A DNA stretch of 64,000 nucleotides from Minisyncoccota bacterium (GCA_030583765.1 CP129474.1:73709-137708); one strand, 5' to 3'; numbered from the stretch's first letter, positions 5,096 to 58,304 are shown. Translations and numbers: made by a program. The notes: generated by a model from the sequence alone, not told the origin.

Positions 5096-5482
5096 TTAGG
5101 TCTTTTGGTTTGCATCCTTACGGCCGGAACCCATGGTCTTACGAACATTACCACGCGTTGTGCGAGAATTGCGACGCGTGTTGCCCTTTAACGGCAAGCG
5201 GCGTGCAAGGCGACTCCCGTGGAGGGTGCCGATTTCTTTATAGCGTTTAATGTTCTGTCCGATTTCCTTACGAAGATCTCCTTCGAGCTTATGATCGCGC
5301 TCGAGAATCTTCTGAATGCGGTTGAGTTCATCTGCGCTCAGCTCTTGAGCACGCTTATCACCGTCTACCTTTGCCTCGGTGAGCACCTTCTTGCTTGTTG
5401 CCAAACCTACGCCATACAAATACTGCAGAGCGTAGAGCACTTTTTTATTATCTGGAATTTGAACACCAAAAATACGAGGCAT
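5096..5482 (-). CDS. rpsM: 30S ribosomal protein S13
   Basis: MPRIFGVQIPDNKKVLYALQYLYGVGLATSKKVL... Uses the internal Met at 5482; the upstream extension overlaps rpmJ. Confidence 0.9.
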   Translation of the reverse strand: MPRIFGVQIPDNKKVLYALQYLYGVGLATSKKVLTEAKVDGDKRAQELSADELNRIQKILERDHKLEGDLRKEIGQNIKRYKEIGTLHGSRLARRLPLKGNTRRNSRTTRGNVRKTMGSGRKDANQKT

Positions 5483-16559: not shown

Positions 16560-16630
16560 CGGGCTGGCGTATGCCGGTAGTACACGTGCTTTGGGAGCAC
16601 GTAGACTGGGTTCGACTCCCAGCAGCCCGA
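16560..16630 (+). tRNA. tRNA-Pro (anticodon TGG), no encoded CCA; unusual G at position 8
   Basis: Acceptor CGGGCTG/CAGCCCG with C1-G72 as in bacterial tRNA-Pro. Anticodon stem CGTGC/GCACG, loop TTTGGGA, T-arm CTGGG-TTCGACT-CCCAG, 4-nt variable loop. Confidence 0.75.
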
Positions 16631-16658
16631 CTGAACGAAGTGAAGGAGGGGTGCGGCA

Positions 16659-16958
16659 GTGACCGAGCGTGAGCGAGGAAATACCAAAGCCAGCAGGCGT
16701 GGTGCCCGACTTTATCGAATACAGAGTGCCCTGCGGCACTCTGTATTCGTATATGGTATGGCGCAGCTGGGAGTCGAAGGACGGAGCGATGTGGTGAGTA
16801 GCAACGAGCCACCGCGAGTCCTGGTCAATATCGCATGGCGAGCGGCGGCGAGGCATGACGATATTGAGACGACCAGCAGCCTCCACAGTTTCATCACTAA
16901 CACACAGCCCCTTCTTGCATTTTGTAACATGAAGCGTACGGTATTTTTAGTTCTCTAG
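16659..16958 (+). CDS. Hypothetical ORF, 99 aa, GTG start after an AAGGAGGGG SD; contains a 15-bp perfect inverted repeat
   Basis: The SD and open frame were read from the sequence. Coding status is doubtful: composition is only weakly protein-like and the frame holds a strong palindrome. Confidence 0.25.
   Translation: MTERERGNTKASRRGARLYRIQSALRHSVFVYGMAQLGVEGRSDVVSSNEPPRVLVNIAWRAAARHDDIETTSSLHSFITNTQPLLAFCNMKRTVFLVL
16716..16749. repeat. Perfect 15-bp inverted repeat with a 4-nt spacer: CGAATACAGAGTGCC-ctgc-GGCACTCTGTATTCG
   Basis: Read directly from the sequence. No flanking T-run, so it is not a canonical intrinsic terminator. It could be an operator or an RNA hairpin. Confidence 0.7.
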
Positions 16959-17268: not shown

Positions 17269-18303
17269 ATGCGTACCGATCAACACCGTTTTCTCTTTTG
17301 GTTTCTCATGGCTCTCTTTGCAGTTGCAGTTTTAATCTTGTGGCCGTTCTTTGGATCACTCGTGCTCGCCGGCGCTGTTGCCATTGCCCTTGCGCCAGTC
17401 ACAGCATGGACACATCGCCTCATCCCCATTAAGGGATTCGCAGCGCTCCTGAATGTTCTCGGTGTGGTGGTGTTGATTCTTGCACCAATTCTGACGCTCG
17501 GCGCACTCGCACTAGAACAGGCAACGGGGCTATATCTTGCGCTTGCAAACCAGACTGACGATATTCCGCGCATCACCCTAGCACTCCAAAATATGATCGG
17601 CGCGTTTCTGCCCGATTCATTTGCCTTCGCAGAAGTTGATGTAAGTGCATGGGCGACCACCGCCGTTCGCTGGGCCATTACACACATCGGCGCGCTGCTC
17701 TCCGGCATCCTCCAAGGGATTGCTACATTCGCACTTATGCTCTTGGTGCTTTACTACTTCTTCAAAGATGGACAGGATCTTCGAGCATTCATCATTCGTC
17801 ACAGTCCTCTTGCCGACACTTACGATGAACGCGTTCTTCATCGTGTAGGAGTTGCCGTGAATGCGGTAATGCGCGGCTCGCTTCTCATCGCACTTGTGCA
17901 GGGAGCGATTACAGGATTTGGGTTTTATCTCTTTAGCGTTCCCAATCCGGCTTTATGGGGCAGTGTCGCCGCCGTCGCCGCGCTTGTACCCACGTTTGGG
18001 ACAACGCTGGTGAATATCCCTGCAATTGCTTTTCTCGTCATTACTGGTGAAACAAGCGCGGCATTTGCGCTCGCAATTTGGGCAGCGATCGCAGTTGGCA
18101 TGATTGATAACCTCCTAGGGCCAAAACTTATGGGACAAGGCACACATCTCCATCCCCTTATTGTGCTCCTCAGCGTTCTCGGAGGCGTGAGCTTCTTTGG
18201 CCCTCTCGGGATCTTACTCGGCCCCCTCACGTTCAGCACGCTCTTTGCAGTATGGGATATCTATATGGAAACCCGCGAAGGCGGGACCATAGAATCGGCC
18301 TAG
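17269..18303 (+). CDS. AI-2E family (PerM/YdiK-like, UPF0118) transporter
   Basis: Eight predicted TM helices. ...LLALVQGAITGFGFYLFSVPNPALWGSVAAVAALVPTFGTTLVNIPAIAFL... is typical of AI-2E. Confidence 0.75.
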   Translation: MRTDQHRFLFWFLMALFAVAVLILWPFFGSLVLAGAVAIALAPVTAWTHRLIPIKGFAALLNVLGVVVLILAPILTLGALALEQATGLYLALANQTDDIPRITLALQNMIGAFLPDSFAFAEVDVSAWATTAVRWAITHIGALLSGILQGIATFALMLLVLYYFFKDGQDLRAFIIRHSPLADTYDERVLHRVGVAVNAVMRGSLLIALVQGAITGFGFYLFSVPNPALWGSVAAVAALVPTFGTTLVNIPAIAFLVITGETSAAFALAIWAAIAVGMIDNLLGPKLMGQGTHLHPLIVLLSVLGGVSFFGPLGILLGPLTFSTLFAVWDIYMETREGGTIESA

Positions 18304-18339
18304 CGCGTTCTCGCCATCACTGCTATACTCTTCCCGTTA

Positions 18340-18413
18340 GCGGGATTAGTATAGTGGCAATACGATTGCTTCCCAAGCAATAGACACGGGTTCGATTCCC
18401 GTATCCCGCTCCA
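18340..18413 (+). tRNA. tRNA-Gly (anticodon CCC), with an encoded CCA
   Basis: Acceptor GCGGGAT/ATCCCGC, D-arm GTAT-AGTGGCAA-TACG, anticodon stem ATTGC/GCAAT, loop TTCCCAA, T-arm ACGGG-TTCGATT-CCCGT, T-CCA. Confidence 0.88.
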
Positions 18414-18416
18414 ATA

Positions 18417-18445
18417 TAAAACATGCCTCTACGGCGTGTTTTATA
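18417..18445 (+). terminator. Terminator hairpin after tRNA-Gly: aaaacatgcc-tctac-ggcgtgtttt followed by a T-run
   Basis: A 7-bp stem with one G.T pair, then TTTTATATT. Confidence 0.5.
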
Positions 18446-18487
18446 TTGTGGACGGATAAGGGAGGGAATCGAACGGCCGGAACGATG

Positions 18488-18575
18488 CCCCGCAAGCTTG
18501 CGGGGCCGAGAGGCCGGGTCCTGAGGCGTATGTCTGCGACGGCAGACATACGACCGAAGGCGATTCCCGTATCCC
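18488..18575. repeat. Two perfect palindromes, CCCCGCAAGCTTGCGGGG at 18488-18505 and CGTATGTCTGC-gacg-GCAGACATACG at 18527-18552, followed at 18561-18575 by a 15-nt exact copy of tRNA-Gly positions 56-70 (CGATTCCCGTATCCC)
   Basis: All read directly from the sequence. The copy matches 18393-18407 inside the tRNA gene. Confidence 0.8.
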
Positions 18576-18667
18576 AGCAGAACTATACAATCCCATATTT
18601 CTGTGGTATGGTGTCAGCTCTTGCTCATTGATAAGGGGTGCATTCAGCATCCCGGGGAGGCAAACAG

Positions 18668-18865
18668 ATGTTCATGGTTCTCGGACTCGCGATCAAGAAC
18701 CAGCCGATGCGCGTCTGCATGGATGTGGAGTGCAGAGGTTGCAAGCGCGCCGCGAAGAGACATGCATACCTTTCGGATAAGATGTGGTGTGATCACTGTG
18801 GCGTTCTCGCCCAGAATGTGGAAGAGGTCCAGCGCCTCTTCCAGCCCCGCATCAGCAGCAACTAG
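18668..18865 (+). CDS. Small zinc-ribbon protein, 65 aa
   Basis: GGGGAGG SD 7 nt upstream. MFMVLGLAIKNQPMRVCMDVECRGCKRAAKRHAYLSDKMWCDHCGVLAQN... has CxxC...CxxC. Confidence 0.5.
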   Translation: MFMVLGLAIKNQPMRVCMDVECRGCKRAAKRHAYLSDKMWCDHCGVLAQNVEEVQRLFQPRISSN

Positions 18866-18873
18866 CCCCTCCC

Positions 18874-18950
18874 GGCGTGGGCACTTTCAGCCCACGCCAC
18901 CCCTTATCAGCGAGCAAAATCAAAACACCCCTTATCGGGGTGTTTTGATT
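18874..18950. terminator. Tandem hairpins: GGCGTGGGC-actttca-GCCCACGCC, then AAAACACCCC-ttatc-GGGGTGTTTT, a bidirectional rho-independent terminator
   Basis: The second hairpin is flanked by an A-run and a T-run. It serves the + small gene and the - strand hup gene. Confidence 0.7.
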
Positions 18951-47093: not shown

Positions 47094-47184
47094 CTACAAA
47101 AAACACCACATTGCGTGGTGCTTTTTGTTTCTCTGAAACCGAGATATCTGAGCTGTTCAGTGTTTTAGAAAACCAATACCTACT
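47094..47184. repeat. Copy 1 of a ~90-nt direct repeat: bidirectional terminator hairpin AAAAAACACCAC-attgc-GTGGTGCTTTTT plus ~55 nt
   Basis: Matches copy 2 with about 2 mismatches over about 88 nt. Confidence 0.85.
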
Positions 47185-47185
47185 T

Positions 47186-47464
47186 CTATTCTCCAAATTC
47201 TTTAAGAATCCGCTCCCCAGCACCCGGGCCCAATTCATGGATAAGATCGACAAGTTCTTGATGTGAAAAATGCGAGAGGTCGCGCATGAGCTGGCGCACC
47301 GTCTCTTCAGAAGCCCCTGCAGCTTGTCGTTCGCGGAGCCACACTATTGCCAACGTTGCGAAAGAAAGAGTACTCGCAAGAGAGCGCACTCGTTCTAACA
47401 GAGCTTCGTCCCATGCGTCACCCGAAGAAAGCACTCCTTTTGTATGAGAGATCGGAATATCCAT
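47186..47464 (-). CDS. Hypothetical protein, 92 aa
   Basis: ORF between the two repeat copies with protein-like composition. Confidence 0.4.
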   Translation of the reverse strand: MDIPISHTKGVLSSGDAWDEALLERVRSLASTLSFATLAIVWLRERQAAGASEETVRQLMRDLSHFSHQELVDLIHELGPGAGERILKEFGE

Positions 47465-47509
47465 ATAAAAATAGGGGGCAGTTTTTTGAGATGCCCAGCT
47501 CTCCTCCGA

Positions 47510-47710
47510 CTACTTGTTGCGAAGGTCCACCGTCTGCGGCAGGTCCGTGCGGATGTCCTGCGTGGTCGGCTTGGACTCGTCGTAGTCGATCTTCATGTCG
47601 GTATGATGCGGCTGATCACGCTTGCCTCGATCATCCGTATGGTACACGTCGATGTGCCGCCCGATCGGACTGTCCGAGTCGTGTGGCTTGCTTGCCTTCC
47701 AGAAGCCCAT
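47510..47710 (-). CDS. Small hydrophilic His/Asp-rich protein, 66 aa, GC3-rich
   Basis: AAGGAG SD 6 nt upstream. A TTGATT-16-TATATT promoter lies at about 47745-47780 on the minus strand. MGFWKASKPHDSDSPIGRHIDVYHTDDRGKRDQPHHTDMKIDYDESKPTTQDIRTDLPQTVDLRNK. Confidence 0.5.
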   Translation of the reverse strand: MGFWKASKPHDSDSPIGRHIDVYHTDDRGKRDQPHHTDMKIDYDESKPTTQDIRTDLPQTVDLRNK

Positions 47711-47800
47711 GGGCTTCTCCTTTTCAAAAGAACGACGTTAAACGGCCAAACGTCCTTTCCATAATATAGAATTAATCTTTTAAAAATCAATCCCCCTAGC

Positions 47801-47890
47801 AAACAAAAAACACCACATTGCGTGGTGCTTTTTGTTTCTCTCAAACCGAGATGACTGAGCTGTTCAGTGTTTTAGAAAACCAATACCTAA
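47801..47890. repeat. Copy 2 of the ~90-nt direct repeat
   Basis: See copy 1. The same terminator hairpin and trailing sequence (ctgagctgttcagtgttttagaaaaccaatacct) are present. Confidence 0.85.
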
Positions 47891-56441: not shown

Positions 56442-58304
56442 TTATGAATTGCTAAAGCCCGTCGCTATCTTATCAAATATTACTTCAAAATTTTTGATAG
56501 TATCCTGCGACAAAGTAATTTTGGATTTATCAGTTTTGACTTTCTCAAAAAACTTTTTGGAAAGGAGTACCTTATCTATTTTTTGATCTTTCAAAAATTT
56601 TGAATTAGCGACGGCTTTATCCTTACTCTTTCCATCATCAAGAACAAAATTGTTGAAATCGTCATGGGTGAACAAATCCTCTATCGAATTTCCATCTTGG
56701 TCAGAAACTGGAATTATTTTATTCTCTGGAACCGCTAATTTTTCCGCAAGCTCTTTCGCGATTCTCTTACCTTCGGCATCATTATCTAAAACCGCTAAAA
56801 ACTCCAAATCCCAACCCAAAAGCAAAGATGCTATCTGTGGCGCCTTCGGCGCACCAACACACGGGATAAGATTTGCATTAGTTGTTTTTCCCTTCGTCAT
56901 AAATTCTTTGAGGGCTTGCAGAAAATAGTAATCCGAAATTCCCTCAAGTAAAACATTGTGCTTTCCGGCGATTGAAAAATCTTGCGTCAAATCAAGGCCG
57001 ATTGCTGTAATAATCGGAGTCAGTGTTTCGTTATCAGCGTTTTTATGGATTTTATTCTCAACTTTTGTTCCGTTGGCATCGTCCTTAATAACGAGACGTA
57101 CTCTATCTAAACGTTGAGCGTCAATGAGATACGGGGAATGTGTGCTAAAAATAACTTGCGACTCCTTTGCAATTTCTTCAAAAACTTTCAAAACATCTTT
57201 TTGCGCTTTCGCGTGGAGATAAAGTCCGGGCTCGTCAATTAAGATTATATTCGTTTCGTCTTTTTCCGCATTGAGTCGCAGGTAGAATGATAAAAACCAT
57301 TGAAAGCCCTTACTTCTCTGCTCTGGTTTGAAAAGCATCGTTTTTCCGGCCTCTCTAACTCCAAGACGCAACTTGTCTCCGTCGGCCTCTGCGACTAAAT
57401 CAAGTTGATTTTGGCCCCAATATCCCATAAAGTCGCCGGTGATACTGGCAGAATGTTTACTTAATAGATTTCGCCGTAATTGAGTATTAGTGGTTTTTAC
57501 TACGTCGTCTAAGCTTAAACCGGCGACTTTCGCAAAATCACTCACGGGTTTATTGTTTTTTGCTTCAGCAAGCGGAAGTTCAAAAGGCAAAATATCGAGA
57601 AAGTCACTGAAGAATATAAAATTTGGAATATATGCTTGGATTTCTTCAAGAAAAACATCTGAAGCGGTCGGGCTTTGTAATGTGCCATTTTCGGCAGTAA
57701 TTGTCGCAATAATTGAATCAGCCTGACTTTTCTTTTCGGTTTCAGTAATTGCGGCTGCCTTTGCTGTTGCTTGAGCGACAAATTGCGTCAACGCATTTTT
57801 TATTTCTTCAATAGAACCGGATATTTTAGGATCGACAAGATCGGTCAATCCGTCTATCTTTTTTAATTTGTCTAACGAAGTTTTTATCTTTGTAATAATT
57901 TGAGCATTCTTGTCGCTTACCGATTTATCAAGCAATTTTTCGAGTGCTTCATCGGATAAATCATAACTTCCGTCAAAATACTTAAAAATCGCTACACCAT
58001 TTTTTGCGATGTGCTCGCGTGTGGCTTTATCAATAGTTATACTTTTTTCTTGTGCAATAGCATCAAGGGTTGCCTTATCGGCATCAAAGACCAATTCAAT
58101 CATTGGTTCCCCACTTTGATCAAGTGGTAACGCCTCATCGGATATTTTCTCAATGTTGGTATCAAAATCTCGCAACGCTTCCAAAATTCCGCTTTTCCCG
58201 GACTCATTCTTCCCAGCAAGTGTTGTTACGTCAGAAGCAAGCCAGCAATAGCCGGAATCTTTAATTGATTTGTATTCTGTTACGCGGAATTTTATAAGTT
58301 TCAT
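56442..58304 (-). CDS. Class-1 OLD-family nuclease: N-terminal ABC-type ATPase fused to a C-terminal Toprim domain
   Basis: Walker A GKNESGKSGILEAL, signature-like QRSKGFQWF, Walker B IILIDEPGLYLH, H-loop IFSTHSP. Toprim motifs VLLEGISDYYFL (Glu) and AVLDNDAEGK (DxD). Confidence 0.75.
   Translation of the reverse strand: MKLIKFRVTEYKSIKDSGYCWLASDVTTLAGKNESGKSGILEALRDFDTNIEKISDEALPLDQSGEPMIELVFDADKATLDAIAQEKSITIDKATREHIAKNGVAIFKYFDGSYDLSDEALEKLLDKSVSDKNAQIITKIKTSLDKLKKIDGLTDLVDPKISGSIEEIKNALTQFVAQATAKAAAITETEKKSQADSIIATITAENGTLQSPTASDVFLEEIQAYIPNFIFFSDFLDILPFELPLAEAKNNKPVSDFAKVAGLSLDDVVKTTNTQLRRNLLSKHSASITGDFMGYWGQNQLDLVAEADGDKLRLGVREAGKTMLFKPEQRSKGFQWFLSFYLRLNAEKDETNIILIDEPGLYLHAKAQKDVLKVFEEIAKESQVIFSTHSPYLIDAQRLDRVRLVIKDDANGTKVENKIHKNADNETLTPIITAIGLDLTQDFSIAGKHNVLLEGISDYYFLQALKEFMTKGKTTNANLIPCVGAPKAPQIASLLLGWDLEFLAVLDNDAEGKRIAKELAEKLAVPENKIIPVSDQDGNSIEDLFTHDDFNNFVLDDGKSKDKAVANSKFLKDQKIDKVLLSKKFFEKVKTDKSKITLSQDTIKNFEVIFDKIATGFSNS

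Follow-up and report, generated by a model that had tools for sequence, protein, structure and literature searches.

Integration into a tRNA gene leaves, in the textbook case, a direct repeat of the gene's 3′ part that begins in the T-loop, and where tRNA 3′ ends are duplicated over a short length it is routine to see in them the att scars of prophages, a reading that can hide a structured element. The described systems closest to the case presented here are the integrative elements of tRNA 3′ ends with their attL and attR copies, the folded recombination sites of integrons (attC) and of CTX-phi (attP), the small structured elements of the MITE and REP types, and RNAs such as tmRNA, those of the mascRNA type and YrlA, in which a tRNA-like module is found. 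The locus comes from a metagenome-assembled genome of the Patescibacteria (CPR), whose genomes are tiny and for which descriptions of mobile elements and regulatory RNAs are scarce, and more precisely from a stretch of 64,000 nt of a Minisyncoccota bacterium (GCA_030583765.1, CP129474.1:73709-137708), here called the window, whose coordinates are used throughout. The original prediction for this locus had pointed to a tRNA-Gly gene, an exact 15-nt copy of its 3′ end at 18561-18575 and two perfect palindromes, all of which are present, and had taken them for the scar of a lost element or for a miniature one. In fact a single folded non-coding module of ~125 nt (18450-18575) takes in both palindromes and the 15-mer copy, along with an inverted copy of the tRNA end; we call this module E, or E-Gly at this locus, and together with the tRNA and the spacer it is composed as follows:

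18340..18413, + strand: tRNA-Gly(CCC) with encoded CCA, whose positions 56-70 (18393-18407) are the repeat copy A (ARAGORN; Rfam tRNA, 71.2 bits)
18414..18449, + strand: spacer with a terminator-like hairpin, AAAACATGCC / GGCGTGTTTT (18418-18427, 18433-18442), then TATATT (sequence, inverted repeat I4)
18450..18474, + strand: A*, which repeats in inverted form the T-loop and the 3′ strands of the T-stem and acceptor of the tRNA, and forms the 5′ strand of P1 (reverse-complement match, folds)
18475..18515, + strand: P2 (GGCC/GGCC), internal loop GGA.../...GA, and hairpin P2a, which is the 18-bp palindrome (18487-18506) (folds, family covariation)
18516..18560, + strand: junction GGG and the long hairpin P3, which is the repeat with 11-bp arms (folds, family covariation)
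18561..18575, + strand: A′, identical to tRNA positions 56-70 and in the same orientation, which supplies the 3′ strand of P1 and ends the module on the right (repeat search)

The 15-mer, CGATTCCCGTATCCC, which is found exactly at 18393-18407 and at 18561-18575, is not one of the common words of this DNA, as had been considered possible: with up to two mismatches it has three matches in the window against 0.11 expected, a count equalled in none of 100 shuffles. The 18-bp palindrome (18488-18505) extends to 20 bp as GCCCCGCAAGCTTGCGGGGC (18487-18506), and the other is an inverted repeat with arms of 11 bp at 18527-18537 and 18542-18552. The full sequence of A* is GGACGGATAAGGGAGGGAATCGAAC, with 11 nt of exact match to the tRNA end, and within it GGGAATCGAAC is the exact reverse complement of tRNA-Gly positions 53-63. 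As A* pairs with the second 15-mer, in both the MFE and the centroid folds, all the features listed earlier are parts of one folded unit: the single-strand fold of 18440-18640 is a stable three-way junction (z = -4.5), which is closed by P1 (A*/A′), and whose arms are P2/P2a and P3, that is, both palindromes. The apical motif of P3, GCGACGGC, is common to other members of the family described below. The spacer, together with A and A*, could form a hairpin with arms of 31 nt, and its own hairpin (18418-18442) received no call in a simple terminator consensus scan. The promoter consensus scan gives a sigma-70-like site just 5′ of the tRNA-Gly (18266-18295) and none between the tRNA-Gly and E.

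With the integrative elements of tRNA 3′ ends, E shares a direct repeat which bounds it and which runs from the T-loop to the tRNA 3′ end or past it, an intact tRNA (71 bits), serial or tandem occupancy and the condition of a hotspot. However, the insert of E is of ~160-200 nt (167 nt here), non-coding and with no integrase found; it adds to the repeat an inverted copy of the target and a conserved, strand-specific three-way junction; and the length of the repeat varies from 15 to 61 nt within one core type. The integration signature that had been claimed is thus upheld insofar as the segment between the copies acts as a tRNA-linked insertion, but not as regards the classical integrase model. 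The likeness to integron attC and to the CTX-phi attP hairpin lies in an imperfect hairpin of ~60-150 nt, in the selection of structure over sequence, in the favouring of one strand, and in a stem that would copy the target site in double-stranded form, to which may be added the cassette-like ORF, folded site and boundary repeat of locus L022. In contrast to attC, E lacks the R″/L″/L′/R′ boxes and the GTTRRRY consensus (inspection shows ...TCGAAC at the end of A* and GTTCGAT in the T-loop, the latter at odds with RRRY), and in contrast to both systems no link with IntI or Xer was found, the target is the tRNA T-loop, and the core is a branched structure whose junction nucleotides are conserved. 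The resemblance is a lead, by analogy only.

Like MITEs, REP and other palindrome-associated elements, E is small, non-coding and structured, with inverted repeats at its ends, a patchy distribution and no internal transposase; unlike MITEs, its terminal repeats are not element-specific TIRs but copies of the local tRNA that differ at each locus, its duplication is long and variable and not a fixed short TSD, and its copies, in the loci screened, appear not to be dispersed, all of them lying beside particular tRNAs. As in the tRNA-like domain of tmRNA, the mascRNA-type modules and YrlA, P1 joins the T-stem and the acceptor stem of a tRNA, here the neighbouring one, in one helix with a single-stranded 3′ tail, but the T-loop, the D-arm and the anticodon arm are all missing from E, which is undetected by ARAGORN and by the Rfam tRNA, tmRNA and YrlA models. 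There is finally an order of parts (A, spacer, A*, core, A′) which we take to resemble that of an LTR element (R, U5, PBS, body, R), and the fold on the sense strand, the variable right edge of the duplication and the CCA of some A′ copies (L075, the third copy of L022) would presumably recall, as leads only, retroelements of fixed site that pair with a host transcript or a tRNA, such as those with the R2 5′ ribozyme, LTRs or the a1/a2 stem of retrons; nevertheless, no reverse transcriptase is found near E, and complementarity to the CCA end is inconsistent.

E is a member of a family of non-coding modules of ~100-150 nt which in Patescibacteria lie 20-140 nt downstream of tRNA-Gly (UCC, GCC, CCC) or tRNA-Pro(UGG). 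The order is always that of the tRNA, a spacer (usually with a terminator-like hairpin), A*, a core and A′, where A* is the reverse complement of the adjoining tRNA from its T-loop to the 3′ strand of its acceptor, A′ repeats that tRNA directly from a point in the T-loop onwards, and the two pair as P1. In a screen of 80 distant loci anchored on RNase Y, about 11 of the 45 tRNA-Gly genes carry copies of their own 3′ end, inverted and then direct, and tRNA-Pro(UGG) does so in several genomes; in the same screen no such copies follow the His, Arg, Leu, Val or Phe tRNAs. Five segments share the fold and the junction motifs GAATCGAA(A)G, NNC-GGA...GA-GNN, GGGGTCGCG...GTGACC and an apical GCGRCGGC, the last of these being kept in L022, L075, L093 and the E-Pro copies. 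A covariance model (R1), built on these five segments with their shared fold, has 12 matches in 0.82 Mb of loci, all of them at most ~250 nt downstream of a tRNA-Gly or a tRNA-Pro and on the same strand. Further copies of the segment, for which the original prediction proposed a search, do exist, one of them in the window itself:

16760..16885, + strand: E-Pro, second member of the family in the window, downstream of tRNA-Pro(UGG) (16560-16630) (R1, 50 bits, E-value ~1e-9)

In E-Pro, A* is found at 16766-16778 and A′, decayed, at ~16870-16881. There is also at least one other type of core, type B (L060, L061 and the tRNA-Pro copy of L083), with the same A*-core-A′ layout, and in L061, L074 and L075 an extra hairpin stands exactly at the acceptor/T-stem boundary of P1.

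The fold is under selection on the strand that has the sense of the tRNA. In the eight confident members, 86.7% of the cells are paired as against 35-43% in slid controls, and 36 of the 42 pairs change on both sides as against 11-22, values reached by none of 500 shuffles, although the counts are inflated in that the alignment was fitted to the model. Changes on both sides occur across the family in all 15 pairs of P3, and P2 covaries as GAC/GUC, GUC/GAC and GGC/GCC. G-U pairs outnumber A-C mismatches by 20 to 7, or by 15 to 2 if the divergent P3 of the window is left aside, and in eight of eight members folding is more favourable for the sense than for the antisense strand; the G-U excess and the better folding of the sense strand indicate that the fold acts in the sense single strand, as RNA or as top-strand DNA.

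Among the sequences close to the window, the Logan contigs L001-L006 are 100% identical to it and thus give no comparative signal; two more informative loci, L101 (a strain-level relative) and L102 (a different species-level genome), were retrieved by means of the AI-2E transporter protein, and in a third, L007, this transporter has 84% amino-acid identity to that of the window. In the alignment of these related loci, the site proves to be occupied in L101 and L102, whereas L007 has no E but a different block of 837 nt, so that the empty or occupied site that had been anticipated is obtained only in the second form. L101 and L102 carry E-Gly at the same site as the window, with A* kept and with a spacer homologous to 18414-18449, and they have the duplication along with the segment, the opposite of what had been put forward as an argument against an insertion. 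E-Gly of the window and of L102 present 10 differences over 125 nt, eight of which are four fully compensated pairs of P2a (GCCCCGCAAGCTTGCGGGGC in the window, GTGACGCCAGCTGGCGTCAC in L102, with L101 having the L102 version). The length of A′ is 15 nt in the window, 17 nt in L102 and 19 nt in L101, and the sequence directly past it differs in the three: L102 continues with 47 additional nt, the last of which form a second GGGAATCGAAC, and in L101 it runs on like the tRNA's own flank up to the end of the contig (SRR31091725), 11 nt later, a continuation that suggests a tandem unit.

In L007, the homology runs to the CCA of the tRNA (18414) and restarts at 18582, 6 nt past the second copy, the interval being of 167 nt in the window as against the 837 nt of an unrelated AT-rich block. 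This block (L007 5147-5983, the same as in L103) is an islet of 32-44% GC situated exactly at the position of E-Gly, with genes for a PEMT/ICMT-type methyltransferase and a DUF4440 protein; it holds no integrase and no flanking repeat, and L007 is without the second tRNA-end copy. E-Pro, on the other hand, occupies the corresponding site in all of L007, L101 and L102, in two allele classes that differ by compensatory changes in the stems: the window and L102 are 86% identical, L007 and L101 77.5%, and identity between the classes is 56-62%. The flanking genes of L101 are 96-99% identical to those of the window, and yet its E-Pro allele is in the other class. In the four E-Pro copies A* is still complementary to the tRNA, and A′ has decayed differently in each; a model in which P1 is purely a functional helix does not explain that A* is kept while A′ decays. 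Within the tRNA-Pro spacer of the window, a stretch of ~78 nt (~16636-16711), absent from L007, L101 and L102, contains GTGACCGAG and ends in a partial copy of the tRNA-Pro 3′ end (CCAGCAG...CCCGACT), and may be a decayed extra unit.

Across the family, the left edge of the direct repeat is always in the T-loop (tRNA positions 54-60, mostly 56/57), and the right edge is at tRNA positions 69-75 or else 12, 38 or 44 nt past the tRNA, with a unit length of 161-209 nt and a duplication of 10-61 nt. The repeats of L051 (56 nt) and L060 (61 nt) are perfect, which points to recent events, and both include flank that is not tRNA, and in the tandem array of L060 the copies of the element are only 93% alike. 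The nearest relatives often differ in the occupancy of the tRNA site, and in older copies A′ decays, with A* and the core persisting. No clean empty site was recovered, as that of L007 holds other DNA and the pairs L061/L091 and L074/L078 are too diverged downstream.

At L022 (9086-9817) there is a cassette-like array made up of a first module (E1) with its A′, an ORF of 143 aa that matches no Pfam family, then a terminator, another structured segment (z = -4.9), which begins with GGAAATCGAAC, and a third copy of the tRNA end. In this third copy the sequence is GCTCCA, whereas no CCA is encoded in the tRNA gene of L022. Other A′ copies likewise have, after the discriminator, a CCA or CC that is missing from the adjoining tRNA gene (L075 ACTCCA, L061 GCACCG, L074 GCACCCA). 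Such copies, few and noticed post hoc, may be derived from RNA or from a donor tRNA with an encoded CCA.

The search for known families, enzymes and carriers gave the following picture. In Rfam 15, whose families include tmRNA, T-box, ribozyme, SRP, 5S, retron msr and omega-RNA-type ones, a scan of the whole window at the gathering threshold finds only tRNAs, and a permissive scan of 18250-18950, as well as scans of six other member loci and of the L075 member, finds nothing relevant; of the folding and Rfam comparison that had been suggested, it is thus the stable junction that emerges, with no family beyond tRNA. The sub-threshold matches to SpF41, which overlaps the tRNA, and to GcvB, on the wrong strand, are due to chance. 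Hammerhead, HDV-like, T-box, 5S, SRP, retron and group II domain V RNAs were dropped, there being no core motifs (by eye) or model matches, as was a second tRNA or pseudogene within E, where ARAGORN and the Rfam tRNA model find nothing. By Pfam, no integrase, reverse transcriptase or transposase appears in 26 ORFs of the window or in the two ORFs of the L007 islet, nor does one appear in the annotated neighbourhoods, which answers the search for integrase genes proposed in the original prediction, and no autonomous relative of E was found, the scope for this genome being the 64-kb window. Copies of E are likewise not found in viral contigs (exact and gapped motif scans) or in phage and plasmid records (blastn); five gapped-pattern matches in that search were set aside as chance, having neither an R1 match nor a tRNA. 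Full-text searches of the literature gave no description of an E-like element. In this way, although the duplication of a tRNA end is a known signature, a recurrent folded core resting on inverted and direct copies derived from the target is absent from Rfam 15, from the phage, viral and plasmid records and from the literature searched.

We consider it rather probable, with a confidence that is moderate at best, that E is an insertion module, miniature and non-autonomous, directed at the T-loop and 3′ end of tRNAs, with a single-strand fold under selection, and of the two alternatives offered originally, a scar or a miniature non-autonomous element, it is the latter that fits better. E would enter the tRNA gene at the T-loop, bringing with it a replacement tRNA 3′ end and a terminator, in such a way that the tRNA would be restored and the displaced original end would stay behind as A′. 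The form that matters would be the folded single strand, RNA or ssDNA: an enzyme provided in trans would take it as its substrate, or it would be a small RNA in which P1 imitates the acceptor/T-arm helix; the reading as an insertion module and that as a small RNA are not mutually exclusive. A more specific version, which we put forward only tentatively, is that of a mobile nucleic acid that bears its own guide: a single-stranded unit of ~160-200 nt that would find tRNA genes by base-pairing via A* and A′, which would read the two strands of the T-loop/acceptor region, and that would be inserted at the T-loop, with the 3′ end re-supplied, by an enzyme acting in trans, its movement taking place through folded-site recombination or through reverse transcription linked to the tRNA. 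A small RNA that mimics a tRNA minihelix and spreads by the same route would be equally new. In any case, what is found is a conserved covarying fold that is tied to specific tRNA genes, is partly built of tRNA sequence and turns over between strains; if it is an insertion module, it would be the smallest tRNA-targeting one known and would raise the question of the enzyme that recognises it, and otherwise it would be a new tRNA-mimicking RNA.

The main alternative, which we regard as possible but somewhat doubtful, is that E is not mobile but is a vertically inherited gene for a small structured RNA, transcribed with the tRNA or just after it, whose P1 would mimic the acceptor/T-arm stack in order to borrow the processing by RNase P, RNase Z and the CCA-adding enzyme or to bind a tRNA-binding protein; local gene conversion would keep its identity with the tRNA, and the arrays would arise by unequal crossing-over between A and A′. 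The strong covariation and the strand specificity of the fold agree with this, as do the junction nucleotides and the apical loop of P3, which are conserved while the stems vary, the core that L090 has retained despite the decay of its P1, the terminators that follow E in L072, L074 and L075, and the synteny of tRNA-Gly, E, HU and RNase Y, which recurs in distant lineages; moreover, between the window and L102 both E-Gly and E-Pro are ~91-92% identical and the flanking genes 74-80%, as would be expected of a vertical RNA under purifying selection. Nevertheless, only about a quarter of the tRNA-Gly genes carry E and the nearest relatives differ in occupancy, sites of one kind hold cores of different types (A, B and others), the allele classes are incongruent with the relatedness of the genomes, and A′ decays in older copies; the perfect repeats of 56-61 nt include a non-tRNA flank that the mimicry of P1 would not need, and there is neither a promoter-like site between the tRNA and E nor a match to a known RNA family.

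That E is a classical scar, in which a prophage or island integrated at the 3′ end of the tRNA-Gly by means of a tyrosine integrase and an internal deletion then left attL, attR and ~150 bp, is in our view improbable. It is true that the direct repeat has the form expected of such an event, that the site is a hotspot, with the foreign AT-rich islet of L007, and that L022 has serial copies of the tRNA end; but random deletions would not recreate the same architecture of 100-150 nt, with the same junction motifs and compensatory stems, in many genomes and at two tRNAs, an inverted copy such as A* is unexpected from att recombination, and no integrase or phage gene is found nearby, nor any phage or viral similarity. 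The lost element of the original prediction gives way, then, to a conserved covarying structure of constant architecture in many genomes. Even less credible, to the point of being very improbable, is that E controls the zinc-ribbon gene in cis, as a leader or an operator, with hairpins that bind a regulator or that form an attenuator or riboswitch. Such a role could be suggested by the position of E, ~90 nt upstream of the ORF 18668-18865 and on the same strand, and by the small ORF that likewise follows E-Pro. It is contradicted by L007, which has the gene and its leader (18582-18667, 87-91% identical in L007 and L102) without E, and by other copies of E, which precede a terminator and a convergent HU gene or unrelated ORFs; no riboswitch or leader family is matched. 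The palindromes, once thought to be operators of this gene, are the stems P2a and P3, in which the sequence is free to vary and only the pairing is kept, and they are missing in L007.

The small zinc-ribbon ORF itself (18668-18865) is real, as had been proposed, and is conserved in the relatives; the protein has no Pfam family, and a collection of 5.8 billion proteins holds only two clusters of it. In L007 its leader is more conserved than its coding sequence, which is 74% identical. The ORF is bracketed by inverted repeats of 20 nt, TTGCTCATTGATAAGGGGTG / CACCCCTTATCAGCGAGCAA (18621-18640 and 18898-18917, also 18926-18942), which in L007 show a compensatory change (GATAAGG/CCTTATC to TATAAGG/CCTTATA), and the motif CACCCCTTAT recurs in the terminator downstream of the ORF. 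These putative elements could be a pairing between the 5′ and 3′ UTRs or a repeated binding site. The assemblies of L005 and L006 (SRR26372205) break at ~18883-18895, near the right arm of the repeat, which, together with the end of the L101 contig past A′, is consistent with repeats or strain heterogeneity at the locus.

Elsewhere in the window, ARAGORN calls a "tRNA-Stop(tta)" of 93 nt at 5155-5247, which is absent from the Rfam tRNA matches at the gathering score and is probably a false positive. A direct repeat of 87 nt and 97% identity (47096-47182 and 47803-47889), with a terminator-like hairpin, flanks an ORF of 140 aa (47347-47769). Finally, at 56442-58304, on the - strand, there is a protein of 620 aa with AAA_15/AAA_21 ATPase and OLD-like TOPRIM domains, which from this domain composition looks like a defence nuclease of the OLD/Gabija type.
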